Shown: in pieces, positions 5,846 through 55,429 of the stretch
Layout: each line of letters begins with the position of its first letter
How positions within the stretch are numbered: the stretch's first letter is position 1
Source of the DNA: Gemmataceae bacterium
GTDB taxonomy: Bacteria > Planctomycetota > Planctomycetia > Gemmatales > Gemmataceae
Assembly: GCA_036266155.1 (NCBI GenBank)
Contig: DATANR010000134.1
Coordinates: 21,526 to 85,525 of the forward strand
Length of the DNA stretch: 64,000 bases
Direction: 5' to 3'
Program-made: the position numbers and the translations under genes
The notes under the pieces: model-generated
The model's input: the letters and a program-made list of their open reading frames with translations, nothing else
What the model was told of the DNA's origin: nothing
Databases searched by the model: none

Positions 5846-5855
5846 GGGCGGCTCG

Positions 5856-8305: not shown

Positions 8306-8370
8306 AGCTGAATTCGTAAGAATTCAGTCAACGCGATGGCCCGATTTTTTGAATTCTCACGAATTCAGCT
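8306..8370. repeat. palindromic intergenic repeat element, copy 2
   Basis: agctgaattcgtaagaattcag (8306-8327) pairs with tgaattctcacgaattcagct (8350-8370). The left arm is identical to copy 1. Confidence 0.8.
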
Positions 8371-8392
8371 GCGAAACGCAATCCGAGACCGG

Positions 8393-9412: not shown

Positions 9413-9495
9413 GGAAGGCTCCCGTGGATGTTGGTTACGGTATGGGCTCTCCCGGAAACGGATCGTGAATTTCGAGCGAAGACGCGTCCGCTAGA

Positions 9496-37631: not shown

Positions 37632-40600
37632 CTACCGAATCTGCTCCGCGTACTTGACAATCGGAGCATAAAGCGGCGCCTTGTACTGGAACCCGGGTTG
37701 CTGACCCGGGTTGCCGGGCACCGCCCCGAAGCCCTGGTAGAACGGATCGGGATTTATCAAGCGAATCGGCGCCCCGCGTCCGTGGCTGTAGTGGAAGAAG
37801 CCGTCGGCTTGGGCCGACTCCAGGATAATCGTCGCCGTCGTGGCGCCCCCGTTCGACGAGGTGGGATCGATCGACTCGAGCGGCAGTCGAATGATCACCG
37901 GCTCCGCCTTGTCGCCGACGTCGAGGATCGCGAGCGACATCTTCTGCGGGTTCGGTGGGCCCGCGTTCGGCGTCGTGTCGATGATCGTCCACGGGAAGCC
38001 GTCGTAGACGCCGTCGAGCCGGATCGTCTTGAATGGCTTGACCGTCGGGTATGGCGGTCCCTGGCCGTAGATCTGGCTGTTCACCGGAATACGGCACTTG
38101 ACCTGCGACACGCTCGGCGCACCCAGCGGGTTGGGCCGCGTGTCCGGGTCGGGCATGACGTTGTAGCTGCCCGGAATCAGACCCAGCGACGGGCTGTTGT
38201 ACGGGATGCCGTTCGGCAGCATCACTTCCGGGTTGTAATCGAAGTAGATCGGCGGCGTCCCTTGCTTCGGCGACGGGCTCTTCGGCGTCAGCGGCGTCTG
38301 ATCGATCGACAGGTTGGTCCGGTCGACGATGGCGAAGAACTTGTGCCGCGTGACCGAGCCTTCGTCCGTGCCGAGTTCCTTGCCCAGGACCGGCCGGTTC
38401 GTGTCGTCGTACGGTCCGTCGTTGAGAACTTCGAAGTAACCGATCGTGGCATAGATGGCGAACGCGTTGCTGCGCGTCGTCGTCTGGTTGAACGACTTGG
38501 CAAACAACTCAAACTTCTGCATCGGGCCGGCGCTGCCGCCGGTCGCCGGCGCGAAGGTCTCGTCGCCCGTCTGGCTGGCCCACAGCGCGCCCCTGCGTGC
38601 AAGCGTTGCATCCTGTGAATTTCCAGTAGGCATGCCCGCATACTCAACCGGCCCGGCCAGGCCGACCATCGGCTTATCACCGGCCGACTGGAACGGCTGG
38701 CTGCCGCCATTCAAGCGCTGACTCACGAACGACTGCCACGCCCGGTCGACGTCGCCCTGGGTAAAGCGATTCGCCTGCTGCGCGTCGCCGATCGCGCTGA
38801 ACTGCGGGGCCGTGCCCGATCCGCCGGTAAGGTTGTTGTGGATCGTGTTCACGTTGATCCGGCCGGGGATCCGCGATCCAAACGGGATGCCCTCAATAAA
38901 CGAGCCCGGCCGCAGGTAATCGAGCGCCCGGAACAGGAACGTCGACTTGCCCGCCGGCAGGTTCGAAGGATCATCTGGGGCGTCCAGCCAGTTGGCCATG
39001 TAGGCGACACGGCGATCCTGCGGGTTGCCCGAGGTCTGTTGCATGAAGAACGCGTGCGTGAGCAGGTGTGGCTTGGTCGACACCACATGCAGCAGCTCAA
39101 TCGGGTTGAGCAGCCCGCGATCCAGATGGTTGAGCGGCATGAACGGCGTCTGCAACGTATCGTTCGTCTGCGAGCCGGGGTTCTCGTCGACCCCGCCCAC
39201 GTAGCCGCCCGGTCCGGCGTCGGCCGGCCAGTTGCCGTTCTTGGCGTTGAGCTTGCTAAACGTGTGCCCGCCGATCTGACCGTTCCCAGCGCCGCCAGCG
39301 CCCTGGCGATAGTGCTGCTGATCGTTCCACTTGATGCGGGCGTCGTACGGCTGTCGGCGCCCCCACGAATAGGTCGTGTTGAGGTCCGGCTGCATGCTCG
39401 AACCCGGGTCCGGGCCGCGCGTGCCGTTCGGCAGGAACTCGATGTGGTCGTAGACCGAGTTGCCCGACCAGTCCGGATCGATGTAATCCACCGTCACGTA
39501 CTGATTGTCCGGCGTGCCGCCAAACTCCTGGAGTGGGTCGCCGTTGTACACCACGTAGGGATTCGACAGCCGCTGGAGGACGAACATCGGCACCCACTTC
39601 GGCTTGCCGTTGTCGTCGGTGTCTTCGTTGCCCTGGGGCGGCTGTTGGAACGGCGGGTAGGTCAACGGCACGTTCAACTTGTCGTGCGTCAGGTCGGCCG
39701 TCACTGAATTGTCGGGCAGTTTGGCATCGTTGCCGCCGCCAGCGCCGCCGGCGCCAGGCGAATCGTCCGACGGCCCGATCACGTAGAACATCTTGCCTTG
39801 AACTTGGGCCTGAACGTTCGGCTGCACTGTCTTGCCGTTCGGGGCCGACTTCGATTTCGTGAAGTCAATCACGCGCGGCCAGCCGTTGCCCTGCGGCGGA
39901 TTGGCCGGCGGCGTCGGCAAGCCCGTCACGTTGTCGAAATCGAGCATCTTGATGTTCTGCGGTTGACCCACCGGCATCTTGTACATGACGATCCGGTAAG
40001 CCGTCTGCAGGTTGGCCGCCGAGTTCAGGTTGGTCGGGTCGGTGTGGACCTTTTCCTCCAAGTTCGTCCGATATCCGCCGTGCGTCGGGTCGGTGTTCGG
40101 GGCCGCCACGGTTGCGCCATCGCCCATCGGGTCCCAGTTCTGGTCGCCCAGCGAGCCGGGCGTCAACGCGTTGTGCAGTTCCAACCAGCACCGCAAGCTG
40201 AGCGGGTCGCCCGCCCGCTTGTTGTTCTTCATCGGAATGGCCGTACCCTTGTCCTTCGGGTCGTTCTCGATGCGGGTGTAGGTCTCGTTCATCACGAGCC
40301 GCGGGCGCTCGAAACCATAGACCCACCCATCTTTGATGCTGACGCCGGTCGGGTTCCAGTTGAAAGCCGTGCTGATGTCGTCATTGTCGATGTAGTCGAC
40401 GATGTTGACCGCCAGTTGGGCCAACCAACGCAGCGAGTTCACCTCGGCGGGCGCCGGGGCGGGCATCGTGTAGACAGCCGGCAGACCGGGACCGGGCACA
40501 GCCAGGGTCGGCATCACGCCCGTCGTCGCGGCCCGCAGGCGATAATAGATATCCTTGGCCAGGTCTTGCCGATCCTTCAACGCCCGCTGGTAATTACCAA

Positions 40601-42953
40601 CGTTATCCGGCCCCAGAGGCAGGTCGGTCCGCGTGCGGTAATCAGTCAGCTTGCGATTGAGGTCGACCGGCCCGAGCATCGCTGCGAGCTTGGCACGATA
40701 GGCATCGTCGTGGTCCGGCGCCGCCCCGCCGAACGTCGGCTTGGGACTGCTCGAGGCCGACGGGTTGAACGGTTGCGGCGTGCCATACGGGTAGGTGGCG
40801 CCCATCACGAAGCTGCCCGTCGTCGGGTTCGGCAGCCACGGGCCGGCGCCCGGCAGGTTCAAATCGCTACTGAGCGTCGTAATGCCGAACCGCGAGTTGA
40901 ACTGCCCATTTTGGAAGTACGAGTTGCCCAGCGTGCTCGAAGCCAGGGCGGCGAGGTCGCTGTTCGGGTACTTGCCATAGTTGTACTTCTCGTTCAGGAA
41001 GCGCATTTCCTCGGGGCCGAACGTGCGATCGATGCCGGCCGGCGTCGACTTCTTCGTCGTCTTCATCCAGTACGGGTTGTACATGGACGGGTGGCCGGTC
41101 CGCTCGTCGTACGGGGTGCCGGGGATGGCCATCCCGTTGTCGTACCGGCTGTCCGGATCGGGATAGGCAATGGGCGGACCACTCAAGAAGGAAGGCCCGA
41201 AGACCGTGCTTGTCGTGTGACCGAGGAACGGCAAGCCCGGGTCCGACCAGCGCTTGGCGGTCGCACGCGTGATGTAGCCGCTGGCGGGGTAGTAGTTGGC
41301 GGCGACACCGTTAAAGTCGACCAGGCCGTAGAACGGCGCGCCGGCGCCCGGCGACGGCTGGTTCTGCGGCGGGGCCGCGTATTCGTTCGGATAGGCGCGC
41401 TGCCGGCGATTCGGCATCGTGTCACCCGCGAAGCGATTGTGGACGCTCGTCGCCGCGTATTTCCATTCCGGCGGCGGCGCCGGATCGCTTCCGGTCCGCC
41501 AGGCCAGCGCCGGACGCGACAACATGGCCGCTTCGTTGCTGTTCCATTGGGCGTTCGGCGGGTTGTTCATGCCAACGCTGATCGGCTGATACGCAGCCGG
41601 AATCTGCATCGGCATGACCATCACCGGATTCACTTCCCACGGCCCAATACCCTGGTTCGAATAGTGGCCGTATTGCGGCACCATCACCGTGCGGAAGTTC
41701 GGCACCGTCGACGGCGGCTGCTGGCCCGGGTTCGGGGCCGACGCCATGTTGTCCGGCAGCGGATAGAAGTTGCCGGCCGTGTTCACGTTCACCCGGCTAT
41801 CCAGGTCGACGATCAGGAGCGCCACGAGCGGCTTGTAATTCTTGCCCTGCCAGCGGCGGACCGGGTAATCGAAGTCCATCCACACGCTGTCGTACTGCAT
41901 TCCGCCCGGCTTGCCTTCAAGGTTCTCGACGTCGCCGTACGTGCCGTCCGGCAAGCCGTTCGGGTAGAAGTTCCACTTCGGGTGCGGGAAGTAGCTGATC
42001 CACTGATTGGCGCCGACCTGGACCATGTGGTCGACCGGCCGCGGCCGCAGGGTCTTGTAACGACCAAGCGAATTCGTCCACGGGTTCGGGTTTGAAGTCG
42101 GATGATTAGCCGCAGCCGTCACCGCGAACGCCTGACCGTAGGTCGGCCCCGTCAGCGGATCGACCGGCGGCATCCATTGCGGCACCTGCGAGGGCGGCAT
42201 CGGCGGCTTGCTCGGATCGACCATCAAGTACGGCCGCTCGTAGGAGGGCAATAGGATGCGGCCGCTCGTCGGGTCCATCGCCGCCAGGAACATGTTGTTC
42301 AAGTCGGGATAGGTGTAGTTGGCGTTCTTGGCGTAATAGCGATAGGTTGCCGCGTTGAAGGCCGGCACGCTCAACTTGGGATTGCGGGCGTAGTTGTTAT
42401 CGATGTCGAACATCCATTGCAAATTCGGATCGACTGCGGCCATCCACGGCGCCCAGGTGAAGTTAATCATCTGGTCCGAGTATGGGATGGGCGGCTTGGA
42501 ACCGCCGTTGTCGCCGAGCGTGGTCGGGTGAATGAGTTGCGGATTGACGCGGCCGACGCCGTTGAACGGCTGCGTCGCGTCGCCGACCTTGCTCGGTAGA
42601 TTGAGCGCTGGCGTACCCGGGTCGATATCGAACCCGTAGATGAGCCGAGATAAGTCGTGACCGCGGAAGCTATCGAACGCCCCGCCGAGATCGTTCGGCG
42701 GTCCGTAAATGACGTCGCGCATCACGATATTGAAGATCGTTTCCGGCTCCGGCGGCGCGCCGTCGTGCGTCGGCGGCAAAACGCCCGACTGCCCGCCGTT
42801 GCCGCCGTCGCGATAGACTTTGGTCTGGTCCGCCTCCGCGATCGAGTAGAACACGAACGTGAGGCCGAGGACCAGGAAGATGGACAAGAAGGCCACGACG
42901 ATGACCGTGACATTCCCGCGCCGGCCGCCTTTTGACGTGCTGTAGGGCCGCAT
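37632..42953 (-). CDS. giant GspK-like minor pseudopilin / pilus-tip protein
   Basis: 1773 aa from MRPYSTSKGGRRGNVTVIVVAFLSIFLVLGLTFVFYS (cat 42951-42953, GGAGG 8 nt upstream). Single N-terminal helix without Glu5. SRVNVNTAG (41773-41811) and GRINVNTIH (38839-38869) are GspK-type motifs. C-terminal SNAFAIYATIGYFEV..HKFFAIVDRT. Confidence 0.75.
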   Translation of the reverse strand: MRPYSTSKGGRRGNVTVIVVAFLSIFLVLGLTFVFYSIAEADQTKVYRDGGNGGQSGVLPPTHDGAPPEPETIFNIVMRDVIYGPPNDLGGAFDSFRGHDLSRLIYGFDIDPGTPALNLPSKVGDATQPFNGVGRVNPQLIHPTTLGDNGGSKPPIPYSDQMINFTWAPWMAAVDPNLQWMFDIDNNYARNPKLSVPAFNAATYRYYAKNANYTYPDLNNMFLAAMDPTSGRILLPSYERPYLMVDPSKPPMPPSQVPQWMPPVDPLTGPTYGQAFAVTAAANHPTSNPNPWTNSLGRYKTLRPRPVDHMVQVGANQWISYFPHPKWNFYPNGLPDGTYGDVENLEGKPGGMQYDSVWMDFDYPVRRWQGKNYKPLVALLIVDLDSRVNVNTAGNFYPLPDNMASAPNPGQQPPSTVPNFRTVMVPQYGHYSNQGIGPWEVNPVMVMPMQIPAAYQPISVGMNNPPNAQWNSNEAAMLSRPALAWRTGSDPAPPPEWKYAATSVHNRFAGDTMPNRRQRAYPNEYAAPPQNQPSPGAGAPFYGLVDFNGVAANYYPASGYITRATAKRWSDPGLPFLGHTTSTVFGPSFLSGPPIAYPDPDSRYDNGMAIPGTPYDERTGHPSMYNPYWMKTTKKSTPAGIDRTFGPEEMRFLNEKYNYGKYPNSDLAALASSTLGNSYFQNGQFNSRFGITTLSSDLNLPGAGPWLPNPTTGSFVMGATYPYGTPQPFNPSASSSPKPTFGGAAPDHDDAYRAKLAAMLGPVDLNRKLTDYRTRTDLPLGPDNVGNYQRALKDRQDLAKDIYYRLRAATTGVMPTLAVPGPGLPAVYTMPAPAPAEVNSLRWLAQLAVNIVDYIDNDDISTAFNWNPTGVSIKDGWVYGFERPRLVMNETYTRIENDPKDKGTAIPMKNNKRAGDPLSLRCWLELHNALTPGSLGDQNWDPMGDGATVAAPNTDPTHGGYRTNLEEKVHTDPTNLNSAANLQTAYRIVMYKMPVGQPQNIKMLDFDNVTGLPTPPANPPQGNGWPRVIDFTKSKSAPNGKTVQPNVQAQVQGKMFYVIGPSDDSPGAGGAGGGNDAKLPDNSVTADLTHDKLNVPLTYPPFQQPPQGNEDTDDNGKPKWVPMFVLQRLSNPYVVYNGDPLQEFGGTPDNQYVTVDYIDPDWSGNSVYDHIEFLPNGTRGPDPGSSMQPDLNTTYSWGRRQPYDARIKWNDQQHYRQGAGGAGNGQIGGHTFSKLNAKNGNWPADAGPGGYVGGVDENPGSQTNDTLQTPFMPLNHLDRGLLNPIELLHVVSTKPHLLTHAFFMQQTSGNPQDRRVAYMANWLDAPDDPSNLPAGKSTFLFRALDYLRPGSFIEGIPFGSRIPGRINVNTIHNNLTGGSGTAPQFSAIGDAQQANRFTQGDVDRAWQSFVSQRLNGGSQPFQSAGDKPMVGLAGPVEYAGMPTGNSQDATLARRGALWASQTGDETFAPATGGSAGPMQKFELFAKSFNQTTTRSNAFAIYATIGYFEVLNDGPYDDTNRPVLGKELGTDEGSVTRHKFFAIVDRTNLSIDQTPLTPKSPSPKQGTPPIYFDYNPEVMLPNGIPYNSPSLGLIPGSYNVMPDPDTRPNPLGAPSVSQVKCRIPVNSQIYGQGPPYPTVKPFKTIRLDGVYDGFPWTIIDTTPNAGPPNPQKMSLAILDVGDKAEPVIIRLPLESIDPTSSNGGATTATIILESAQADGFFHYSHGRGAPIRLINPDPFYQGFGAVPGNPGQQPGFQYKAPLYAPIVKYAEQIR

Positions 42954-43022
42954 GGGAGGAACCTCCAAAAGACAGGTAACAGGAGGGCTGCCGGGGGGTA
43001 TGGCCAGCAACCCAGGGATAAA

Positions 43023-44387
43023 TCAAACCTCTTGGACGATCGTGACCTGCCGAGCCTGTTCGGCCCGCGGGTCGTAAATTCGAATCTTGATCTGTATCGC
43101 CCGGACGTTGATCCGGTTGGGCACGGTGCCGGCACTCGGCGTCAGGAACGACGTCATCTGATCCGCATCCGCGGGATCAATGGGCGCGAAACGCGGGTCG
43201 CCGAGGATTGTCCGCAGGCCCGTGTCGAACACGCGGCCCTGGCCCGGCATCAACACCGAATTCCAATAAATGTCCGAGAACGGCTCGTCCATGTTGCCCG
43301 TGGCGAAAATCGCCGGCGGCGGCGAGCTGTTCTGCACCACGGTGTTGAACGTCGCGTTGTTGAACCAGGCGAGCTTGATGTCGAACGACAACACGTCCGT
43401 TAGCACGACGTCTTCGCCGGTCGTCGGAACGCCGGCCACGATCAAGTACGGGTGCGGAATCGCCGACATTCGCTGCACGTACTGCGGCGGTTTCGTGTTG
43501 TCGACATACGTCGGTGTCCAGTCGACGTCGGGATTGTTCAAAGCTTCCGGACCGGGAAGGCGAACCGTGACGAACTGGGGTGGCTGGGCCGGGATCGGGT
43601 TGGGCGTCACGATGATCGGGGCGATCACGTCGGGATACTTAGGCACGTTCGGATAGCTGACGTAGTAGCTCCCGACAAGTTGCATGGCCTGGGCCAGCGG
43701 CAAGTTGTTGTAATCGACGCTCGTCGGCGGCAGCAGACGAATGCGGCGGCGCAGCGAATACAACTGCAAGCCGCCGCTGGCGAATTCGCCGACCGTCGGC
43801 TCGAGCCAATAAACGACCTCGGCCCAGCGCGTGTACATGATCGACTGGGCGTTGATGAACGAATTCACCCGCGAATCGGCGGTGAACGTCGAAAGAAATT
43901 GAGCGGCGAACAGGTCGGTTTGCGGACCGTCCGGCAAGCGGACGGTGAAGCGCATCTTGTGATTCACGGCCCGCGTGGAGGTGATCCCTTCACCGTCGGT
44001 CCGTGCATTGGCGAACGGTTCGAGAATCGACGCCAGGTTGCCGGCCGGACCTTCGCCCAACTGGCGCATCTCGAAGTAACCGCTGTTTGCCGGCGTCCAT
44101 CCCGATTGATCGAGCCGCTGGTCGGACAGACGCGGGCCGCCGCGGGCGGAACCATAGGGCGGGCCAAACTTGTCGCCGCCCAGATCCTTGCGCATGAGCG
44201 TGATCGCGGTGCGATTGCGCTCCTGGAGCACGCCGGCCGTGCGCAACGCCGAGGTCGTCTTGGACGCCGCCGCCAGCGCTTGCGAAATGATCAACATGAT
44301 CATCATGACCAGCGCGGTCGCGACGAGCATCTCGACCAGCGTAAACGCCGATCGACGCACGGAGCGGGCGTGTGATCGAATTCGCAT
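43023..44387 (-). CDS. prepilin-type N-terminal cleavage/methylation domain protein (large minor pseudopilin)
   Basis: 454 aa. N-terminus RRSAFTLVEMLVATALVMMIMLII. Confidence 0.85.
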   Translation of the reverse strand: MRIRSHARSVRRSAFTLVEMLVATALVMMIMLIISQALAAASKTTSALRTAGVLQERNRTAITLMRKDLGGDKFGPPYGSARGGPRLSDQRLDQSGWTPANSGYFEMRQLGEGPAGNLASILEPFANARTDGEGITSTRAVNHKMRFTVRLPDGPQTDLFAAQFLSTFTADSRVNSFINAQSIMYTRWAEVVYWLEPTVGEFASGGLQLYSLRRRIRLLPPTSVDYNNLPLAQAMQLVGSYYVSYPNVPKYPDVIAPIIVTPNPIPAQPPQFVTVRLPGPEALNNPDVDWTPTYVDNTKPPQYVQRMSAIPHPYLIVAGVPTTGEDVVLTDVLSFDIKLAWFNNATFNTVVQNSSPPPAIFATGNMDEPFSDIYWNSVLMPGQGRVFDTGLRTILGDPRFAPIDPADADQMTSFLTPSAGTVPNRINVRAIQIKIRIYDPRAEQARQVTIVQEV

Positions 44388-44420
44388 GGCTTGTCCCCTG
44401 CTTACTCCGGCCGTCTTGCT

Positions 44421-44520
44421 CCCCCCTCTCCGCTTCGGAGAGGAGGGTTGGGGGGGAGAGGTTATCGAGGTTCGCCCAGAAACCTCTCCCCCTAGCCCCC
44501 TCTCCGCAACGGAGAGGGGG
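44421..44520. repeat. array of three GC-rich hairpins between pseudopilin genes
   Basis: cctctcc-gcttc-ggagagg (44425-44443). gggggagaggtt..aacctctccccc (44452-44463 pairs with 44481-44492). ccccctctcc-gcaac-ggagaggggg (44496-44520). Confidence 0.8.
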
Positions 44521-44540
44521 AACCAAACCAGACTTGCCAG

Positions 44541-45743
44541 CTACTGCTTCGTAGCCCCCGCCGCTGACACTGTACCGCGGTCGAACACTTCCACCAAATT
44601 GTCGAATACCACGGCAATTCCCGAGGGACCATACGTTTGATCGATCGCGTAGGTCCCCGGCAGCGCGGGCTTGATCGGTGATTCGAGTTCGAGCGCCAGG
44701 AAGCCCGCGATGTCCGAATTGATGCCTGAGACGCGATAGAAATCGAAGGTCATGTACGGCACGAACGCCTGTGGCGCGTTCGTGGGCGGCCTGATGATGC
44801 GGTGGAAGGCGATCCACCCGCCGCGCCGCAGGTTCGGGATCACCTGGCCGCCCAACTGAACGAGGATGTTCTTTTGCCCGGGCGCCGCATAGGCGTTGAA
44901 CGCGGTCTCTTGCGACGGTGTGTCCGTCGCCGAGCGGGCCGCGTATACGAGGACCGACACGTTGGCTTCGGCCGGGATGTCGTTCCGCGGCCGATAGACC
45001 AGCCACGCCACGTTGTAGCGGCCGGCCCGCTCGATCTGCCCCGTAAAGTCGGCCGGTTCGCCCATCACCGAAAAAGTCGAGCCGTCGCCGGGCCGGGCGA
45101 AGGTCATGTCGTCGAGCAAGGCCGTATTGCGAACTACAGGCGTGGGCGGGCTGAACTGCGGATACGGAAACGGCGGATTCGGCCACGGTCCCGGCGCTGG
45201 CGGCGAAGGCAAAGTGGGGTCGTACCAATAGCCGCCGTTCACGTTGATGCAGCGCCGCAGCGTCGTCCGCGATGGCAGAACTGACTGACCGGCGATCAGG
45301 AATTGATCGTTCGTACCCGCCTTGGTCAAGAAGCCGACGGGGTCGACCAACACCGGGAAACTCGGCTGACTCAGCGTCGGCAAACCGACGCTGGCCGCGG
45401 CCGCACCCGCGGGAATGGTGCCGTTGATGCCATAGTTCTTGTTCGGGTGATTCTCGAAGGCCCAGAGCATCGGCTCCTGCGAGAAGTAATAGGCGTCCGC
45501 GTTCGAAGCTCGGATGTTGCCGCCGTTCGGATCGTTCCACGCGGCCTTCCAGTAGTAGCGGAAGGTCTGATCGGAGTTGACGCCGTGCGTGGTGCTGCGA
45601 TCCTGCGTGATGGCGCGGGCCATGTTCACGGCGCCGATCGGGAACAGCGCCATGATGCAGACGAGGCCGATCGCCATGATGCCGGTGGCGACCATCACTT
45701 CCATCAGCGTCACGCCGGAGCGTCGTCGTTGGTTCGCCGTCAT
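44541..45743 (-). CDS. prepilin-type N-terminal domain protein (large minor pseudopilin)
   Basis: 400 aa. RRRSGVTLMEVMVATGIMAIGLV. Confidence 0.85.
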   Translation of the reverse strand: MTANQRRRSGVTLMEVMVATGIMAIGLVCIMALFPIGAVNMARAITQDRSTTHGVNSDQTFRYYWKAAWNDPNGGNIRASNADAYYFSQEPMLWAFENHPNKNYGINGTIPAGAAAASVGLPTLSQPSFPVLVDPVGFLTKAGTNDQFLIAGQSVLPSRTTLRRCINVNGGYWYDPTLPSPPAPGPWPNPPFPYPQFSPPTPVVRNTALLDDMTFARPGDGSTFSVMGEPADFTGQIERAGRYNVAWLVYRPRNDIPAEANVSVLVYAARSATDTPSQETAFNAYAAPGQKNILVQLGGQVIPNLRRGGWIAFHRIIRPPTNAPQAFVPYMTFDFYRVSGINSDIAGFLALELESPIKPALPGTYAIDQTYGPSGIAVVFDNLVEVFDRGTVSAAGATKQ

Positions 45744-45773
45744 GGGTATACCTTTCGCGGACCGGACGCGGGC

Positions 45774-46889: not shown

Positions 46890-46891
46890 GG

Positions 46892-47848
46892 CTAGTTCCC
46901 CCTATTGGTCTGCTGAATCCGGTAGCTGTAAATGTTGTCCTGCTCGTTCGGCGGATAGTATTGCTTGTCGCCACCGGCCGAGAAGACATAGGGGCCGCGG
47001 TTCACGCCGTCGAACGGGTTCTTAATGAACGGACGCTTGCTCGCGTTCGGCTGGACGAAGTAGTTGAACGCTGGCGTGTAAAGCGGCCAGCCCTGGATCT
47101 GGAGCCGGCCTTCTCGGTCCATTGGGTCATTTTTGGGGAATGTTGGCGATCCTGCCTTGTATGCCGAGTAGGCGGCTGCTTGGGTCGCATTGACGAACGG
47201 CGGCTGATTCAACTCGTCGAGGACATACGCAATGTCGTCGTCCGCCTCGCGGCGAAAGCCGATCGGCATGCCCCATTCATCGATGAACACGGGCAATTGA
47301 ATGGTGCCGCCCGACTTGCGAGGGAACTCGAGCTTCGCGGTCCGCGAGGCGGTATCGTTGCCGAAAGTGACCCCGCCGCGCCCCTGGCTCATAATCAGGT
47401 ACAGCATCGCCGCGTTTTCCTGATCGTTGAACAACGAGGCGTCGAGGATCGTTAGCGCGTAGATCGGCTTCGGCAGATACTTGGCCTGGTTGTACGTGAA
47501 ACTGTCGGTCGCCTCGCCGAAGTTCTGCGGGAATTCCTGACGCATGCGCAGTTTCATGTGCAAAGCCCGCGCTCGAACCAAGTCGGTCTGACCGTTGGCG
47601 TTCTTCGTGCCTTCGACAATGTCCGGCGGAATCGTCTCCGCCCGGCATGTGTCCAGCGCCGCCTTCCATTGCTGCATAAAGCCGACGTCGATCTTGCGCA
47701 CGGCCGTCACCGTGTTCTTTTCGGCCTGCGACTGCCTCAGGCGGAACACAGCGCTGGCGGTGATCGCGATGAGCAAGCTGATGATGGCGATGACCACCAG
47801 CATCTCGATCAGCGAAAACCCGGGCCGGCGTCGATTAGTGATCTTCAC
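46892..47848 (-). CDS. prepilin-type N-terminal domain protein (pseudopilin)
   Basis: 318 aa. GTG start (rc of cac 47846-47848). RRRPGFSLIEMLVVIAIISLLIAI. Confidence 0.8.
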   Translation of the reverse strand: MKITNRRRPGFSLIEMLVVIAIISLLIAITASAVFRLRQSQAEKNTVTAVRKIDVGFMQQWKAALDTCRAETIPPDIVEGTKNANGQTDLVRARALHMKLRMRQEFPQNFGEATDSFTYNQAKYLPKPIYALTILDASLFNDQENAAMLYLIMSQGRGGVTFGNDTASRTAKLEFPRKSGGTIQLPVFIDEWGMPIGFRREADDDIAYVLDELNQPPFVNATQAAAYSAYKAGSPTFPKNDPMDREGRLQIQGWPLYTPAFNYFVQPNASKRPFIKNPFDGVNRGPYVFSAGGDKQYYPPNEQDNIYSYRIQQTNRGN

Positions 47849-47868
47849 GAGCGCGTCTCCCGAGTGGG

Positions 47869-48873
47869 TTAGTTGTCCGAACCGAGAACGTACCGCGCGA
47901 AGTTCGCCAGGTCGTCGTTGCCGTCCTTGGTCTGGTACGGTGAGCCGCCCGGATAGTAGGTGGAGTTGTTGCCCGGCGTGCTGCCGGCGCCCGGCACGCG
48001 ATTGCGGCCCGGGCTGACGATCTGGTATTCCTGGGTCTGCATGTACTTGCCGTCTTTGCCGATGTGCGGATTCATGCCGCCGTAGCCGCCCACGTTGGTG
48101 AAGCCGCCGGCGCTCGCGCTGGGATTGAACACCGGCTGGTAGAGGCCGTAGTAGTAGTAATCGTTGCCGCTGCGCGAGCTGAAGTAGTAGTAGACCGATT
48201 CAGCAAGGTTGTTGTTGCTGTGCTTATCCCAGTACGGATCGTGGTAGTGGCCTTGCGAATCGATACGGTCAGGCTTGAAGTCGAGGAACGGGCCCTTGGC
48301 CTGGGCGCCGTTGGTCGGCGGGCCGGACTGGCCGCTCTGGACGTTGAACGGGTTCTGCGGCGAATTCAGGAAGCCGGTGCGCGTGCCAATCCAGTTCGCG
48401 CCGTTGAAGCCGTACGGCCGGGAGTCGCTCGGTGGAATGCCGCCCAGCAGGAACACCAACAGTTGGTTGCCGTCCAGGTAAATGTCCCCAGTGTTCGCCG
48501 GCAGCGGCGTGATCCCCGGCATGCCAGGCACGAAGGCCTTCGGCCACACCTTCGAATAGAAGTCGCGGCTATCCGCCAGCGCCGCGTTGAACTGGGCCAC
48601 GGTGGGGCCGCCCGGCGGCATCGTTGTGCGCGGATTGTAATTGCTTGACAGGATGAACGCCGTCGGGACGAACTTCACGTCGTACGTCGACTTGAAGTTC
48701 TCGATCGACGTGCCCAGTTCGCCGATTTCGGCTTTGCACCGGGCCCGTGTGGCCGCTTCGCGGACCTTTTGCACGGCCGGGAGCAGCAGGCCGATCAACA
48801 AGGAGATAATGGCCATCACCACCAACAACTCGATCAGGGTGAACCCGGATCGGCTCGCGTTTGCCCGTCGCAT
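47869..48873 (-). CDS. prepilin-type pilin with DUF1559-like N-terminus (candidate major subunit)
   Basis: 334 aa from [46 protein letters not shown] (cat 48871-48873). I did not see the H-X9-DG C-terminal motif of DUF1559. Confidence 0.8.
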
Positions 48874-48933
48874 GGCAGGTCTCCCGTATGTGCCAGGGGC
48901 GTCCCCCCGGTCTTCCGCGTGAAGCATTATTCG

Positions 48934-50178
48934 CTACTTGCTCAAACCTTCCAAAAGTCCAAGCATCGGCAAAAACAAGGCCACAACGATGGTCCCAATG
49001 ATGCCGCCGAGCACGATGATCATGATCGGCTCCAGCAAACTAATCAAGCTCTTGACAGCTGTATCCACTTCCTCGTCGTAAAAGTCTGCAATTTTGTATA
49101 GCATCGTGTCGAGGTCGCCGGTCTCCTCACCGACCTCGACCATGTTCGTCACCATGTCGTCAACCAAGCGCGACTCGCGGAGCGGGTCGGCAATCGTGTC
49201 GCCCTCGCGGATCGACTCGTAAACCCGCTGGAACATCCGCTCGAAAACCGCGTTGTTCGATGTCTCGCGGACGATCGCCAGCGATTCCAGAATCGGCACG
49301 CCGGAAGAAACCAGCGTACCTAACGTCCGCATTGTGCGTGCCACGACCGTTTTTTCGACGATCTTGCCGATAATCGGCACCCACAGCAGCATTCGATCCA
49401 AAGCATAGTTCCCGGCCCGGCTCAGGCGGATCAATTTCATCAACAACCAGAGCCCGAGCGGCACCAGCGGCAGGCTCCACCAATATTTCGAGCACCACAT
49501 CGAAACGTCGATGAGGAATTGCGTCAGTTCCGGCAGCTTGAGCCCGAACTCGCGGAAGATCTTTTCGAACTTCGGGATGATGGCCACCATGATGAAGATC
49601 AAGATGCCGACGGCGGCCGTGATAACGACGGCTGGGTAAACCATGGCCCCGATGACTTTGCGCTTGAGCGTCTGGCTCTTTTCCTTGAACTCGGCCAGGC
49701 GCTTCATGATCGTTTCGAGAGCACCGCCGGCCTCACCCGCCTTGACCATGTTCACGTAGAGTCGATCGAATGCCCGCGGATGCTTGCCGAGCGCCTCGGA
49801 CAGCGTGCTGCCGGATTCGACGTCCTCGACCACGTCGATCAGCGCGTTCTTGAGAGCGCTTGGCCGCATTTGTTTTTCGAGAATGCGCAACCCGCGGAGC
49901 AGCGGCAGACCGGCGTCCTGGAGAATGGAGAATTGACGCGTAAAGAGCACGAGGTGCTTGGTCTTCACACCGCCGATGACGAAGGTCTTCTTGGACTTCT
50001 TGTAACCGGCTTTCTTCTTCTTGCCCTTCTGCTTGCCACCGCCCACCGCGGTGAGCTTGGTGACGAAGTAGCCCATCTGCTTGATTTTCTGTTGCGCCTC
50101 TTCTTCGTTGGTTGCCTCGATCTCGTCCTTCACCTCTTCCCCGGAGGTGTCCATCGCTTCGAATTTATAAGCTGGCAT
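48934..50178 (-). CDS. type II secretion system F / PilC family platform protein
   Basis: 414 aa. MPAYKFEAMDTSGEEVKDEIEATNEEEAQQKIKQMGYFV. Two GspF repeats and three TM regions. Confidence 0.9.
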   Translation of the reverse strand: MPAYKFEAMDTSGEEVKDEIEATNEEEAQQKIKQMGYFVTKLTAVGGGKQKGKKKKAGYKKSKKTFVIGGVKTKHLVLFTRQFSILQDAGLPLLRGLRILEKQMRPSALKNALIDVVEDVESGSTLSEALGKHPRAFDRLYVNMVKAGEAGGALETIMKRLAEFKEKSQTLKRKVIGAMVYPAVVITAAVGILIFIMVAIIPKFEKIFREFGLKLPELTQFLIDVSMWCSKYWWSLPLVPLGLWLLMKLIRLSRAGNYALDRMLLWVPIIGKIVEKTVVARTMRTLGTLVSSGVPILESLAIVRETSNNAVFERMFQRVYESIREGDTIADPLRESRLVDDMVTNMVEVGEETGDLDTMLYKIADFYDEEVDTAVKSLISLLEPIMIIVLGGIIGTIVVALFLPMLGLLEGLSK

Positions 50179-50349
50179 GTCAGGCTCTCCGGGCGGTCAG
50201 CGAAGGTCGTTGATCGGCGAACAGTCATTAATCTGCAACACGATACGTCTGGACCTCAAACGATCCAAAAACTCGGGCGGAGGCCCGGATACGCAAGAAA
50301 CCATGTATTTGCCCTGAAAGGGCACATTCACCCATTCGATTCCCGACTT

Positions 50350-52314
50350 TCAACTCTCATCCTCAAGGATGGTCTCCCGCACCACTTCATCCACAGTCGT
50401 GACCCCGGAATACAAGGCATCCAGGCCGCGTTCACGCAAGCCTTTAGTTCCCTTGGAACGGGCGTATGCTCGCAGTTGGTCTGTCGACGCCCCCTTGGAC
50501 ACCATGTCCCGGATGTCGTCGTTCATGATCAGGAACTCATAAATGCCGGTCCGGCCCTTGAAGCCGAGGTTGTTGCACTTGTCGCAACCTTCGCCGAAGA
50601 AGAACTTTTTGCCGCGCACGTCTTCCGGCTTCAGGTTCAACTCCATGAGTTGATCGCGGCTCGGCTCGAATTCGGTCTTGCAGATGGGGCAAATCCGCCG
50701 CACCAGTCGTTGGGCGAGAATGCCTTCCACCGTGGCCGTGATAAGAAACGGCTCGACGCCCATGTCGCGCAGGCGGGTGATCGAGCCTGGCGCGTCGTTT
50801 GTGTGCAGCGTGCTGAACACCATGTGCCCGGTGAGCGAGGCCTGGATGGCGATCTGGGCCGTTTCCAGGTCACGGATCTCGCCGACGAGGATCCGATCCG
50901 GGTCCTGCCGCAGAATGGCACGCAGGGCGCTGGCGAACGTCAAGTCGATGTCGGAATTGATCTGGCACTGAATGAGGCCGTCGATTTCGTACTCGACCGG
51001 ATCTTCCGTCGTGATGACCTTGTCGGTGATCTCGTTCAACTCGGAGAGCGCCGAGTAGAGCGTGGTCGTCTTGCCGGCGCCGGTCGGCCCGGTCACCAGG
51101 GTGATGCCGTTCGGCTTGTGCATCACCGCGCGGAAATCTTGCAAAATGTCCTGCGGCATCCCGATCTTTTCGAGATCGAGGCCGACGCGGCCCTTGTCGA
51201 GAACGCGGATGACGATCGATTCGCCGAACATGGTGGGCAACACGCTGACGCGCATGTCGACCGTGGCGCCGCCGATGTTCAGCTCGATGCGCCCGTCCTG
51301 CGGCAAGCGCCGCTCGGCAATGTCCAGGTTGGACATGACCTTGATACGCGAGCTGATGGCGGTCGCGAGGTGTCGCGGCGGCGGGACCATTTCGTAGAGC
51401 ACACCGTCGCAGCGATAACGCATCTTGTATTCGTCTTCGAACGGCTCGAAGTGAATGTCGGACGCGTGGTCCTTGATGCCCATCAGGAGCACCATGTTGA
51501 CCAGCTTGCGGACCGGGGCCGCGTTGGCCATTTCTTCGACGGACGCGATGTCGATCGACGTTTCGCGCTTGCCGTAGCCCAGGTCGACGTCCGTCGCCAT
51601 TGCGTTAATGATGTCGGCGATCGACTCTTCCTTCGTGGTCGAATAGGCCTTAGTCAGGGCCGCGTCGATCTTCGACCGCGGTGCAAGCTGAGCGACCACC
51701 TGGCGAATGCCAAGCATGTTGCGCAAGTCGTCCAGCGCCATCAAGTTGTTCGGGTCTGACATGACCACCGTCAGGACGTCTGCCTCCATCTTCAAAGGCA
51801 GCATCTTGTACAGTTCGGACATGTTCTGCGGGACGGCCTTCATGGCCTCCGGCGTCGGCTTGACTTCGTCCAGATTGACGAGCGCCATACCGTGCAATTC
51901 GGCCGTGGCGGTGAGGAGCTGGTCTTCGTTGATGAGCCCGCGATCCATCGCAATCTTGTCGACTTGCGAATCGGTCTGCCGAGCTTCCTCCTCGATCGAT
52001 TCGAGCTGCCCGTCGTCGATGAAACCGAGGTCGACGAGGATGACGCCGATCGTACGAACCGCCGGCTTTTCCTTCTTCTTCGGCGCGGGCTTGGGTGCAG
52101 GCTTCGGCGCCGGCTTGGCCGGCTCCGCAGGCTTCGCCGGTGGCTTACCCGCTTGCGGCGTAGCGGGCTGCGGCTTCGCTGGTTGAGCCGCTTGCGGCTT
52201 CGCGGGCGGGGCAGGCTGAGCGCCGGCCGGCTTGGCAGGTTGCTGGCCCGCCGGCTTCGCGGGCTGCCCTGGTTGGGCGGGCTTCTTCGGATCGTTCGGA
52301 GTCGGTGTGGCCAT
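50350..52314 (-). CDS. GspE/PilB-family assembly ATPase with ~85-aa Pro/Ala/Lys-rich N-terminal extension
   Basis: 654 aa from MATPTPNDPKKPAQPGQ (cat 52312-52314). T2SSE_N-like domain. Walker A GPTGAGKTTT. Asp and His boxes. Tetra-Cys CPICK..CDKC. Confidence 0.9.
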   Translation of the reverse strand: MATPTPNDPKKPAQPGQPAKPAGQQPAKPAGAQPAPPAKPQAAQPAKPQPATPQAGKPPAKPAEPAKPAPKPAPKPAPKKKEKPAVRTIGVILVDLGFIDDGQLESIEEEARQTDSQVDKIAMDRGLINEDQLLTATAELHGMALVNLDEVKPTPEAMKAVPQNMSELYKMLPLKMEADVLTVVMSDPNNLMALDDLRNMLGIRQVVAQLAPRSKIDAALTKAYSTTKEESIADIINAMATDVDLGYGKRETSIDIASVEEMANAAPVRKLVNMVLLMGIKDHASDIHFEPFEDEYKMRYRCDGVLYEMVPPPRHLATAISSRIKVMSNLDIAERRLPQDGRIELNIGGATVDMRVSVLPTMFGESIVIRVLDKGRVGLDLEKIGMPQDILQDFRAVMHKPNGITLVTGPTGAGKTTTLYSALSELNEITDKVITTEDPVEYEIDGLIQCQINSDIDLTFASALRAILRQDPDRILVGEIRDLETAQIAIQASLTGHMVFSTLHTNDAPGSITRLRDMGVEPFLITATVEGILAQRLVRRICPICKTEFEPSRDQLMELNLKPEDVRGKKFFFGEGCDKCNNLGFKGRTGIYEFLIMNDDIRDMVSKGASTDQLRAYARSKGTKGLRERGLDALYSGVTTVDEVVRETILEDES

Positions 52315-52373
52315 ATCGAATAAAACCGCTGGTATTTGAGTGAGGAACGGGCGACCGTCGTTCGGTCGAAACA

Positions 52374-53549
52374 CTACTTCCGCCGCCGCCGACGATCGTC
52401 CTCGTCATCATCCTCTTCGTCTTCGTAATCCTCGTCCTCGTCTTCCTCCTCGTACTCGTCCTCGGCCTCTTCGAGACCACGCTCGACGGCCGCGATCTTC
52501 GCCGCCAGTTCGGACGGTTTCTTGGCCTTGAGCAGGATTTCTTCCTTGTCCACCAGACCATTCTTCCACAAGCCGAACAGGTTGTCGTCGAGCAAAAACA
52601 TGCCGTATTTACGGCCGGTCTGGATCGACGAGTCGATGCGGTAAACCTTGTTTTCGCGGATGAGGTTCTGGATGGCATCCGTCACCACCATCATCTCGAA
52701 GGCCGCCACCAGTCCTTCGGGCTTCTTGGGCAGGATCGCCTGTGACAGCACACCGATCAGGGCGGTGGAAAGCTGCGTGCGGACCTGATCCTGTTGGTCC
52801 TTCGGGAAGACGTCGATGATTCGGTTGATGGTGGAAGCGGCGCCGGAGGTGTGCAGCGTGCCGAACACGATGTGGCCGGTTTCCGCGGCTTCGATGGCCG
52901 CGTGGATCGTGGCCAAGTCACGCATTTCGCCGACGAGGATGATGTCGGGGTCCATTCGCATGGCCCGGCGAATTCCTTCCTTGAAGTCGGGGACGTCGAC
53001 GCCGATTTCACGCTGATTGACCGTGCACTTCTTGTGTTTATGCTGGTATTCGATTGGGTCTTCCAACGTGACCACGTGCCGATCGTAGTTGTCGTTGATG
53101 AAGTTGATCATGCTCGCCAGGGTGGTCGTCTTGCCCGACCCGGTGGGGCCCGTGACCAGAATCAACCCGCGTGGTCGCACAATCAGCGAGCGAATCGCCT
53201 CGGGCATGCCGATCTGCTCGAACGTCAAGAACTGACTCGGAATGCGCCGGAGGACCATGCCGATCGAACCGCGCTGCTTGAAGATCGCGCAGCGGAAACG
53301 AACGCCCTCGAGATATTCGATGGCAAAGTCGGCGCCGCCTACCTCCTGAAGTTCTTGCTGGCACCGGTCCGGCGTGATGGCCTTCATCAAGGCGGTGGTG
53401 TCGTCGTTGTCGAGGCTTTTGGCTTCGAGCCGGCGCAGTCGTCCGTGATGGCGAATGACCGGCGGCTGGCCGACGGCGACGTGAAGGTCGCTCGCCTTCA
53501 ACTGAATGACCGTGGCCAGAAGTTTGTCGATCTGAAGAGACGAAGCCAC
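52374..53549 (-). CDS. pilT: type IV pilus retraction ATPase PilT with acidic C-terminal tail
   Basis: 391 aa. GTG start. GLILVTGPTGSGKTTT, DPDIILVGEMRD and GHIVFGTLHT motifs. Tail EEAEDEYEEEDEDEDYEDEEDDDEDDRRRRRK. Confidence 0.9.
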   Translation of the reverse strand: MASSLQIDKLLATVIQLKASDLHVAVGQPPVIRHHGRLRRLEAKSLDNDDTTALMKAITPDRCQQELQEVGGADFAIEYLEGVRFRCAIFKQRGSIGMVLRRIPSQFLTFEQIGMPEAIRSLIVRPRGLILVTGPTGSGKTTTLASMINFINDNYDRHVVTLEDPIEYQHKHKKCTVNQREIGVDVPDFKEGIRRAMRMDPDIILVGEMRDLATIHAAIEAAETGHIVFGTLHTSGAASTINRIIDVFPKDQQDQVRTQLSTALIGVLSQAILPKKPEGLVAAFEMMVVTDAIQNLIRENKVYRIDSSIQTGRKYGMFLLDDNLFGLWKNGLVDKEEILLKAKKPSELAAKIAAVERGLEEAEDEYEEEDEDEDYEDEEDDDEDDRRRRRK

Positions 53550-53692
53550 GTTGTTCTCCCCTGTCTGGCAGTCGGCCTCCCGTTCGTTGCGGGAGGGATA
53601 AAGTCGATCACCGTCCGACCAGGGTCAGGGTATTTCGGGCGCAAACTCCTGTCACGCCCGAATTATGCCCCGCGCCTGGACTTCGGCCAAAA

Positions 53693-55429
53693 CTACTTGG
53701 TCGCCTTGCCCACGCTGGCAAGCTCCGCCGCCTCCGCGTGGCACGTACTCAACACTTCTTCCAGGGTCGTCGTCCCCTTGAGCACTTTCAGCATCCCATC
53801 CTCCAGCAGGTTCCGCATGCCGTTTTGGCGGGCTATGCGGCGAATCTGCTGGGCGGGCGCCTGAGTGAACGTCAGTTCACGGATAACGGATGTCAGCTTC
53901 ATCATCTCAAAGATGCCCAGCCGACCGCGATAGCCTGATTGATTGCAGTGCGCGCAGCCAGTGCCACGCATGAAGGTCGCCTTGGCCAGCGCTTCGGGCT
54001 TGATGCCAGCCGATCGAATTTCCCCATCGGATGGCTTGTAAGGCTTCTTGCATTTCACGCAATTCACGCGCACCAATCGCTGGGCCATGATCGCGATCAC
54101 GGAGGATGCAATCAAGAACGGTTGGACACCAATATCAGCGAGGCGGGTAATAGCAGAGGGCGCGTCGTTCGTGTGAAGTGTACTGAATACCAAGTGTCCA
54201 GTCAAAGAAGCCTGTACCGCGATCTCAGCTGTCTCCTTGTCGCGAATCTCGCCGACGAGGATGATGTTCGGCGCTTGCCGCAACATCGCTCGAATGATCC
54301 GCTGAAAGTCCAAGCCAATTTGGTGCTTCACCTCGACCTGATTGATGCCCGGCAAGTAATACTCAACCGGGTCCTCGGCGGTGATGATCTTCCGATCTGG
54401 CCGGTTCAACTCGTTGAGCGCCGCATACAGCGTGGTTGTCTTGCCCGACCCTGTCGGCCCGGTGACCAAGAAGATGCCGTTCGGACGCTTGATGATTTGT
54501 TGGAACTTCACATAGTCGTCTTCACCGAAACCGAGATCGCGGATAGATACTTGGATGCTGCCACGATCAAGAATGCGCATGACCGTTCCCTGGCCATGCA
54601 CTGTCGGCAAGAGACTCACACGAAGATCGAAGTGTCGACCCTGGATATTGATCTTGATACGACCGTCCTGAGGTCGCCGCTTCTCGGCGATGTCGATCGA
54701 GGCCATGATCTTGAAACGCGAGGTCATCGATGCGAACAACCGACGCGGCACCGCATCGCGTTCAACCAGCACCCCGTCAATTCGGTAACGCACCCGGACG
54801 CGATCCGCGAACGGTTCAATGTGAATGTCAGAGGCGCGCTGGGCGACCGCTTCCTGAATGATGAGGTTGCAGAGTTTTACCACCGGCGCGTCAGAATAAT
54901 CGTCTTCTGCCGCTTGTTTCGACGCTTCCGTCTGCGTGAAGTCGATGGCGGTATCTGTAAATTCGACCAGCATCGAGTCCATCGACTCGGTTTCGGTCTG
55001 ACCGTAGTGCCGGTTGATCGCCTCACGGATCTGCTCGTGGTCGGCCAGAACCGGCTGGACGTCCTTGTTCAGAATGAACGTGAGTTTCTGGATAACGTCG
55101 TAGTTGGTCGGGTCCGATGTAATCACCTTGAGGACGTTGCCCTCGAGCGCCAGTGGAAGCACCACGTTTTCGCGAGCCACCGACTCGGGCACCAATTCGA
55201 TGACCGCCTTGGGGATTTCAACTTCCTCCAGGTTCACGAACTGGAGGTTGTGGAACTCAGCGATCGCCCCCATGACCTCGGCCTGGGTGGCGTAATTCAA
55301 CTTGACCAGGGCTTCCTGAAGCTTGATGCCCGTGCCGCTCGCCAGGCCCTCGGCCTCGGCCAGCTGATCGGGCCCGACCGTACCATTACGGATCAAGATG
55401 TCGAGAAAGTCACCGCGCGCTTTGGCCAT
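53693..55429 (-). CDS. GspE/PilB-family assembly ATPase
   Basis: 578 aa. T2SSE_N domain. GPTGSGKTTT. CVKCK..CAHC zinc motif. Confidence 0.9.
   Translation of the reverse strand: MAKARGDFLDILIRNGTVGPDQLAEAEGLASGTGIKLQEALVKLNYATQAEVMGAIAEFHNLQFVNLEEVEIPKAVIELVPESVARENVVLPLALEGNVLKVITSDPTNYDVIQKLTFILNKDVQPVLADHEQIREAINRHYGQTETESMDSMLVEFTDTAIDFTQTEASKQAAEDDYSDAPVVKLCNLIIQEAVAQRASDIHIEPFADRVRVRYRIDGVLVERDAVPRRLFASMTSRFKIMASIDIAEKRRPQDGRIKINIQGRHFDLRVSLLPTVHGQGTVMRILDRGSIQVSIRDLGFGEDDYVKFQQIIKRPNGIFLVTGPTGSGKTTTLYAALNELNRPDRKIITAEDPVEYYLPGINQVEVKHQIGLDFQRIIRAMLRQAPNIILVGEIRDKETAEIAVQASLTGHLVFSTLHTNDAPSAITRLADIGVQPFLIASSVIAIMAQRLVRVNCVKCKKPYKPSDGEIRSAGIKPEALAKATFMRGTGCAHCNQSGYRGRLGIFEMMKLTSVIRELTFTQAPAQQIRRIARQNGMRNLLEDGMLKVLKGTTTLEEVLSTCHAEAAELASVGKATK

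Follow-up and report, generated by a model that had tools for sequence, protein, structure and literature searches.

A probable type IVa-pilus-like filament operon of Planctomycetota with two extension ATPases, oversized prepilins and a giant candidate cap protein

Type IVa pili (T4aP), such as those of Myxococcus xanthus and Geobacter, employ an extension ATPase (PilB), a retraction ATPase (PilT) and a platform protein (PilC), and T4aP minor pilins together with PilY1 form a priming complex (PMC7541494). In type II secretion systems (T2SS), a pseudopilus is formed by GspG, GspH, GspI, GspJ and GspK, as in E. coli/enterotoxigenic E. coli (3CI0) and in the XcpGHIJK model of Pseudomonas (9a1f). 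Subunits of the PilK type require a terminal β-strand, which is provided in trans by PilY1 or in cis in the T2SS and Tad systems (PMC13533445). Among the closest known counterparts are genes of Planctopirus limnophila, where Rivas-Marin et al. (2023) listed Plim_0410-0401 as a run of four genes labelled ‘type II secretion’ with six planctomycete-restricted unknowns after them (PMC10632474). Here, these systems are compared with a ten-gene operon at positions 37632-55429 of a 64,000-nucleotide stretch of DNA (the window) from a Gemmataceae bacterium (assembly GCA_036266155.1, contig DATANR010000134.1, positions 21,526 to 85,525). The locus probably encodes the core of a filament machine that resembles type IVa pili and is typical of Planctomycetota, with subunits in the style of G/G′-H-I-J-K, a giant cap and two motors for extension. 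It represents an ordinary member of a class whose layout has already been noted in the literature (PMC10632474); what the window adds is a Gemmataceae example, a phylum-wide ATPase tree with two clades and a clearer account of which claims about the giant have support and which do not.

The ten open reading frames (ORFs) of the operon all lie on the minus strand at spacings of -1 to 171 nt, in agreement with a preceding sequence-only reading that had described ten co-directional genes with short gaps. They encode two intact PilB-type ATPases, PilT, PilC, five prepilin-peptidase substrates and a giant sixth subunit. PilB, PilT and PilC occur in the same order as in the T4aP loci of M. xanthus and Geobacter, and further likenesses to T4aP are the MshEN N-domain and tetra-Cys site of the motors, four minor pilins together with a large putative tip protein, and, at other loci, PilD as well as candidate PilM-type partners and secretins. 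In contrast to T4aP, the planctomycete operon carries a second, anciently diverged PilB upstream of pilT.

PilB1, an extension-type ATPase of 578 aa encoded by the first gene (53693..55429), contains T2SSE (E 8e-135) and MshEN domains and belongs to a position-1 paralogue clade found across the phylum. PilB2, the extension ATPase encoded by the third gene (50350..52374; 674 aa), has the same domains (T2SSE, 4e-135) and falls in a canonical PilB-like position-2 clade. Between them lies the gene for the retraction ATPase PilT (52374..53549; 391 aa; TIGR01420 at 433.6 bits, cut-off 319.1), whose stop is overlapped by pilB2 by 1 nt. The PilC/GspF platform protein follows (48934..50178; 414 aa), with two T2SSF domains (PF00482 twice, E 1.4e-64) and 57-91% identity to its relatives. 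Alignment shows that both PilB proteins keep the Walker A motif GPTG(S/A)GKTTT, GEIRD, TGH(L/M)VFSTLHTNDA and the CxxC...CxxC site. Together with the MshEN and T2SSE domains, this bears out the earlier view that neither copy is degenerate; upon proper alignment, the catalytic residues of both are intact. Both proteins align end to end with solved T4aP PilB structures, 3jc8 of M. xanthus and 5tsg/5zfr of Geobacter, with scores of 478-530 bits, and score lower, at 400-438 bits, against GspE of the T2SS; the best PDB match of PilB2 is Geobacter PilB, at 530 bits. On the TIGR02538 PilB equivalog, PilB1 and PilB2 reach 622.5 and 615.5 bits (cut-off 675.65), and on the GspE equivalog 595.9 and 618.8 bits, respectively (cut-off 630.25). 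The two ATPases thus appear PilB-like, short of equivalog level.

The c-di-GMP (cyclic di-GMP) motif of the MshEN N-domains was considered and rejected: the two copies score 20.9 and 24.5 bits against a cut-off of 38 bits and have other residues in place of the RLG arginines, so no claim regarding c-di-GMP is made. PilB2 possesses a Pro/Lys-rich N-terminal extension of ~100 aa, whose basic PAKP repeats are not conserved and are missing from Lacunimicrobium album. At its C-terminus (52374-52480), PilT bears a poly-acidic tail of ~30 residues with an RRRRRK cap. An acidic tail is present in 17/19 of the Planctomycetia PilT orthologues inspected and in none of those inspected from other classes.

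The motor block extends well beyond the family. In a sample of 61 genomes spread evenly over the phylum (55 families), every genome contains a PilB1-like gene, and tandem PilB-like genes were found in at least 44 of the 60 genomes other than the present one. The tandem copies are mostly separated by 1.2-1.9 kb, the size of pilT, while four pairs are directly adjacent. ORF maps of 15 of these loci gave the order PilB1-PilT-PilB2-PilC in nine by BLAST label and in three more by size, and some of the mapped loci have prepilins and a protein of 1113-1576 aa downstream. Maximum-likelihood analysis of 57 ATPases recovered two clades, one with every position-1 protein and one with every position-2 protein (support 100/99 for each), and both repeat the same broad species groupings. 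The PilBs of M. xanthus and Geobacter fall in with the PilB2 clade (90/86). By this grouping, PilB2 is the canonical PilB, and PilB1 is an ancient second paralogue retained throughout the phylum. In at least two loci from other classes or families (L169 and L172), the place of the pilins after the motor block appears, by eye, to be taken by an ORF that resembles a sensor histidine kinase (HEINNPL motif), an arrangement that recalls the pilB-pilT-pilC-pilS order of Geobacter and Myxococcus. A pilMNOPQ cluster downstream of the motor block in other classes was considered and rejected by eye, as the ORFs resemble a histidine kinase and unrelated proteins.

Within Planctomycetia, the entire operon is conserved. 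The order PilB1-PilT-PilB2-PilC-five pilins-giant recurs in ~20 genomes, essentially all relatives whose contig reaches far enough, and it is found in complete genomes, including that of Tuwongella immobilis, and in L. album, a member of another family. Conservation of the ten-gene order across Planctomycetia, along with that of the two-PilB block across the phylum, supports the earlier proposal of a planctomycete-specific fibre machine. The motors are 56-93% identical to those of relatives, the pilins and the giant mostly 22-54%. Median lengths of the five pilins across relatives are 315, 319, 345, 342 and 422 aa, and the giants span ~1300-2150 aa; the oversized subunits are a family trait.

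The giant is detectable in 51/61 close relatives, and in all relatives inspected its gene closes the minor-pilin block. When named genomes were scanned with a profile, 304 giant relatives were returned; the best 80 of the 304, among them Zavarzinella formosa, Limnoglobus roseus and Fimbriiglobus, belong to Gemmataceae, Gemmatales or Planctomycetia, the exceptions being a few metagenome bins that are unlabelled or evidently carry a wrong label. A second search with the L. album protein as the query extends the distribution to Gimesia, Rubinisphaera, Symmachiella and Planctomicrobium, and P. limnophila is not among its named matches. All of the giant homologues (more than 289) are annotated as ‘hypothetical’ and lack a Pfam domain. 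Some Gemmataceae encode extra paralogous giants away from the motor genes (loci L086, L088, L112, L116, L117, L125, L135, L147, L150 and L151). At L086, L088, L147 and L150, three or four ORFs of 450-820 aa, none with a BLAST match to the operon pilins, precede the extra giant. Such loci may be alternative tip cassettes.

Domain assignment with Pfam and NCBIfam gives N_methyl as the sole Pfam match of Pil5-Pil9 at E<=0.01. Four prepilin-type proteins of 318-454 aa had been noted beforehand, and N_methyl is found in all five ORFs between 43023 and 48927. All five have class III signal peptides with Glu5. Pil5 (47869..48927; 352 aa; N_methyl 6e-8), the candidate major subunit, begins with the GspG-type signal G|FTLIELLVV...LLLPAVQK, and Pil6 (46892..47848; 318 aa; N_methyl 4e-8) is a second GspG-type prepilin. 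Pil7 (45774..46889; 371 aa) is a GspH/FimU-like minor pilin that matches TIGR01708 (GspH) over residues 10-77 (E 2e-6). Pil8 (44541..45743; 400 aa; N_methyl 6e-5) is weakly assigned as GspI/PilV-like, and its family conserves the N-terminal pattern G|VTLxEVxVAxxIMxIGL. Pil9 (43023..44387; 454 aa; N_methyl 1.7e-4) is GspJ/PilW-like. When each subunit family profile was compared locally with E. coli GspG-K by hhalign, the best match was GspG for Pil5 (97.6%, 58 columns) and Pil6 (95.9%), GspH for Pil7 (94.2%, 63 columns), GspI for Pil8 (26%) and GspJ for Pil9 (61.6%, 53 columns). The best matches thus follow the order G, G, H, I, J. These N-terminal signatures, like the gene order after the platform gene, appear to be shared with the T2SS pseudopilus, from which the operon differs by its PilT, its PilB-like ATPases, an extra G-type subunit and far larger sizes. 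The contrast with T4aP is equally marked, since the planctomycete pilins are 2-3 times the usual size, their globular parts match no known fold, and the candidate major subunit has 352 aa instead of being a small pilin of ~15-20 kDa. No Pfam or NCBIfam family matches the globular parts of the pilins.

Pil5 had been described as DUF1559-like in the sequence-only reading. This assignment had to be abandoned: searched up to E<=10, Pil5 has no match to DUF1559/SBP_bac_10 (PF07596), and a prepilin encoded on C60 of the same genome, used as a control, gives 9e-45. Only the N-terminal LLLPAVQK helix is shared, and this helix of Pil5 recurs in ~44 scattered prepilins of the genome. A strict prepilin N-terminus occurs in ~50 ORFs genome-wide, 44 of which, with a median mature length of 310 aa, show the LLLPAVQ helix of the DUF1559 type. 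The scattered DUF1559-type prepilins constitute a large pool of potential PilD substrates without an assigned assembly machine.

The final gene of the operon (37632..42953, within an ORF of 37632-43010) encodes the giant cap candidate. Its start is the ATG at 42953, in agreement with the database gene call and the homologues, and yields 1773 aa. The N-terminus, RRG|NVTVIVVAF..., is a pilin-like, hydrophobic transmembrane segment without Glu5, and the family consensus RRGxILxVV likewise has no Glu at +5. Absence of Glu5 is a hallmark of the tip-most subunit of the GspK/PilX/PilK type. The family alignment consists of conserved blocks divided by variable stretches. In order, these are the N-terminal helix, NAxYTYPDxNN, LIxDLDxRxNVNxAGN, LAQLAVNIVDYIDxDD, GRINVNT and TTRSNxFAxxxTxGYFEV...RHxFFAIVDR. 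By eye, E. coli GspK displays a parallel series: QRG and a helix, DAQHCFNLN, ADYIDVDD, INLN and a C-terminal SRYFTL strand. The counterparts in the giant are RRG and the hydrophobic helix, DLDxRxNVN, VDYIDxDD, GRINVNT and the C-terminal strands. These short motifs in the same order are suggestive of a GspK-like protein, as in the T2SS pseudopilus, whose last subunit also lacks Glu5.

At the opposite end of the giant, the last ~30 residues are conserved and the preceding ~180 are not. Because PilK-type subunits require a terminal strand (PMC13533445), this conserved segment suggests that the giant may supply its terminal strand in cis. Tip subunits with a cis strand and modular pilins (GspK, TadG/CpaL, and PilB/PilC of Streptococcus sanguinis) similarly combine a pilin-type anchor with a large extra tip module (PMC13533445, PMC8179133), and PilK-type subunits can provide the final β-strand in cis without PilY1. 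In this regard, no PilY1 family match was found among the operon ORFs, and a 1773-aa pilin-anchored protein would stand at the tip position, in contrast to T4aP. The largest modular pilin cited comprises 860 residues (PMC8179133). At 1300-2100 aa, the giants are several times larger than these examples, and they appear to gain their extra mass through several insertions between conserved motifs instead of one appended domain.

Another prepilin-type cassette of the PVC (Planctomycetes-Verrucomicrobia-Chlamydiae) lineage is the Verru_Chthon cassette A-D (TIGR02600/02598/02599/02596), which ends in a very large protein A. Weak matches link Pil5, Pil6 and Pil7 to D, Pil5 also to C, and Pil8 to B, at 17-25 bits against cut-offs of 51-256. 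TIGR02600 (protein A) matches 3/28 giants, with a best E of 0.0044 (cut-off 332 bits), and does not match the window giant, including in a six-frame search of its own genome. All operon scores are far under the family cut-offs, and the window giant has no match to the cassette families.

The remaining components of the machine were sought in the whole assembly (8.2 Mb, 510 contigs, 94% complete) by six-frame hidden Markov model (HMM) searches. The window’s contig has no secretin, A24 peptidase or PilM_2 protein. The sequence-only reading had reported that PilD, PilQ/GspD and PilMNO were missing, which is correct for the window and not for the genome, whose other contigs encode a PilD, two loci of the PilM type and four secretins. 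PilD is on C503 (380 aa; A24_N_bact and Peptidase_A24). On C441 (2159-9169) lies the gene for a strong PilM_2 protein of 912 aa with a transmembrane segment and a Gly/Pro-rich tail; next come two for membrane proteins (633 and 748 aa) that bear repeats of the PGPGPM type. The C60 locus (75-10780) encodes a weak PilM-like protein with a transmembrane segment (527 aa), a 483-aa protein, a secretin of 2148 aa with long Gly-rich low-complexity stretches, and then a lipoprotein; it is a candidate for the machine’s outer-membrane section. No Pfam match was obtained for the C60 lipoprotein or for the proteins encoded after the PilM-type genes. Other secretins are found on C335 (1507 aa) and C32, and a Tad locus is present on C206; the genome has four secretin-domain genes in all. 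Lastly, C141 (4314-7259) carries a third GspE-like ATPase (575 aa) and a GspF-like protein (401 aa) without adjacent pilins; in the tree, this ATPase lies outside both PilB clades and the PilB references, near the long branch of E. coli GspE. Since PilD, the PilM-type proteins and the secretins lie on other contigs, the machine appears to be split over several loci and not to be secretin-less.

An indication of function comes from P. limnophila, a member of a different family, Planctomycetaceae. Its genes Plim_0410-Plim_0401 are annotated as T2SS E, twitching motility protein, T2SS E, T2SS protein and six planctomycete-restricted hypotheticals (PMC10632474). Protein lengths of ~565, 370, 570, 419, 352, 370, 360, 468 and 1599 aa were obtained by our own arithmetic, as insertion count over insertion index, on values of the supplementary table; the length of Plim_0402, which has no insertions, is not inferable in this way. 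The series runs parallel to the lengths in the window operon. By TraDIS (transposon-directed insertion-site sequencing), Plim_0401-0408 and Plim_0410 were scored essential, with insertion indices of 0-0.0056 compared to 0.12-0.27 for neighbours, and Plim_0409 (‘twitching motility protein’, PilT) was scored unclear, at 0.022 (PMC10632474). As the assembly genes are essential and pilT is not clearly so, filament assembly, and not retraction, seems to be the housekeeping function. This sets the P. limnophila operon of the same layout apart from T4aP. Plim_0076-0078, comprising PilM and the next two genes, are also essential (PMC10632474), and the C441 trio resembles this set. A literature search found no mechanistic study of the operon. 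The locus had been called functionally undescribed, and this is accurate as far as mechanism is concerned; its layout had nonetheless been noted, and the genes other than pilT scored essential, in P. limnophila (PMC10632474).

In the model favoured here, PilD would cleave the class III signal peptides of the subunits, and Pil7, Pil8, Pil9 and the giant would assemble into a priming complex in the style of GspH-I-J-K. The Glu5-less giant would occupy the extreme tip as a built-in cap or adhesin of ~190 kDa, a single chain that does the work of both PilX/GspK and PilY1. Beneath this tip, PilC would polymerize Pil5, and perhaps Pil6, driven by PilB2, whose gene adjoins pilC. Large subunits could then lead to an unusually thick fibre, which PilT would take apart. 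PilB1, which is as old and as well conserved as PilB2, would be a second extension motor, most likely acting on the same platform under different control or with a different subunit pool.

Several results weigh against this model. The H, I and J assignments of the minor pilins depend mainly on their first 25-63 residues, and that of Pil8 to GspI reaches the 26% given above; the order is therefore supported and not proved. An AlphaFold2 (AF2) model of Pil9 (pLDDT 71.5) consists of a 54-residue N-terminal helix and β-sheets and has no significant fold neighbour in the PDB by Foldseek, so a GspJ fold is not confirmed. For the giant, GspK homology meets more direct objections. The window protein belongs to no Pfam or NCBIfam family, and the same libraries, searched at E<=1 with 28 homologues, returned stray weak matches only, including one of the 28 to PilX_N (E 0.09). 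A profile of 48 giant sequences found nothing among all PDB sequences. By hhalign, the giant profile reaches 26% against E. coli GspK, through the N-terminus alone, and against the E. coli GspG-K set it gives GspJ 33% and GspK 5%. Residues 352-1551 fold into a compact and confident AF2 model (pLDDT 76.5, pTM 0.85), for which Foldseek returned no PDB match at E<=0.001 and placed the XcpGHIJK model at rank 2 (E=1.4). The previous description of the giant as GspK-like is accordingly retained for its position, its Glu5-less N-terminus and its short ordered motifs, and finds no support in any HMM, profile or fold search; in the comparison with the T2SS, neither HMMs nor folds gave a significant match to GspJ or GspK. 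The minor pilins, whose globular parts match no family and no PDB fold, do not correspond to known orthologues of a characterized T4aP cluster. As regards the cell, Plim_0401-0410 appear to share the layout of the window operon by annotation order and back-calculated lengths, and the TraDIS essentiality of upstream genes could be partly polar. The literature search returned no filament, subunit or localization data for the operon in any planctomycete. Finally, the genome offers two PilM-type sets and several secretins as possible partners.

An unlikely alternative is a T2SS-like endopilus, in which a short periplasmic G-H-I-J-K pseudopilus acts as a piston that pushes folded cargo through a secretin, while PilT merely resets the piston. 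Essential envelope or surface proteins, or the ~44 DUF1559-type prepilins of the genome, could serve as its cargo. The gene order E-F-G-G′-H-I-J-K appears to be that of the T2SS, and the 618.8 bits of PilB2 approach the GspE cut-off. Essentiality also suits secretion or envelope biogenesis better than an adhesive pilus, and pilT is the one dispensable or unclear gene of the P. limnophila operon. However, both ATPases are nearer to T4aP PilB structures than to GspE, and PilB2 clusters with the PilBs of M. xanthus and Geobacter and not with E. coli GspE. The presence of PilT within the operon, conserved across the phylum, further argues against an endopilus, as do the PilM type of the partner alignment protein (no search was made for GspC, L or M) and the separate GspE/GspF-like pair on C141.

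It is very unlikely that the operon encodes parts of two machines in one transcription unit, where PilB1, along with PilT, would power another filament that is assembled with a different platform/alignment set and secretin (e.g. the C60 locus), and PilB2, PilC, the pilins and the giant would operate with the PilM set on C441. The genome, with two loci of the PilM type and no fewer than three secretins that are not Tad, would accommodate such a division, which is also consistent with the ancient separation of the PilB1 and PilB2 clades and with the two GspG-type pilins, Pil5 and Pil6. On the other hand, a single PilC is linked to the PilB pair anywhere in the phylum, and PilB1 remains beside PilT-PilB2-PilC even where the pilin block sits elsewhere. 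The only other platform protein seen pairs with its own ATPase on C141 (no genome-wide T2SSF search was made).

Boedeker et al. (2017) described 12-nm fibres emanating from large crateriform structures, and press-stud-like contacts between the two membranes. It is highly improbable that the operon builds a static trans-envelope tether, a short capped filament at the core of such crateriform press-stud contacts between inner and outer membrane whose role in envelope integrity would explain essentiality: the operon’s essentiality without a clear requirement for pilT, the non-essential peptidoglycan synthesis genes of P. limnophila (PMC10632474) and the giant secretins of 2148 and 1507 aa make a purely circumstantial case, and the strict phylum-wide conservation of PilT in the operon argues for dynamics.

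A bolder reading may be entertained as a rather doubtful speculation. An essential, phylum-specific trans-envelope filament, made of thick fibres of 35-45-kDa subunits with a ~190 kDa head, would constitute both the core of the crateriform structures and their 12-nm fibres. Its two motors would load two subunit pools, the operon pilins and several dozen scattered DUF1559-type prepilins, and it would serve as a membrane tether or as the long-sought ‘fishing rod’ for macromolecules. The link from the crateriform structures and 12-nm fibres to the operon is hypothesis only. If such a filament exists, either role would explain why assembly is indispensable and retraction is not. To our knowledge, essentiality is rare among type IV filament machines. 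In the present case, a version that combines two extension motors with very large subunits is retained by a whole phylum, and an operon of matching layout cannot be lost by a model species. Its function could account for the crateriform structures and thick fibres, for macromolecule uptake, or for envelope cohesion where peptidoglycan synthesis is dispensable, and would show how a tip subunit reaches ~190 kDa and why one platform would need two PilB paralogues.

The operon is flanked downstream by pheT and a DUF4058 ORF and upstream by a divergent PSCyt1-WD40 gene. As these neighbours are unrelated, the unit comprises ten genes. A scan of the operon for promoters and terminators gave a site count no higher than in shuffled sequence. 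The DUF4058 ORF (E 3.6e-12; 36610-37371, plus strand) takes up the greater part of the 1 kb that separates pheT from the end of the giant gene. Within the operon, the gap between Pil8 and Pil9 (44388..44540, minus strand) contains intergenic nested hairpins with a minimum free energy of -97.9 kcal/mol (z = -6.87). The building unit of these hairpins is the palindrome CCCTCTCCG-N-CGGAGAGGG, which occurs in 37 copies genome-wide, and the region is a dispersed element resembling repetitive extragenic palindromes (REP-like).

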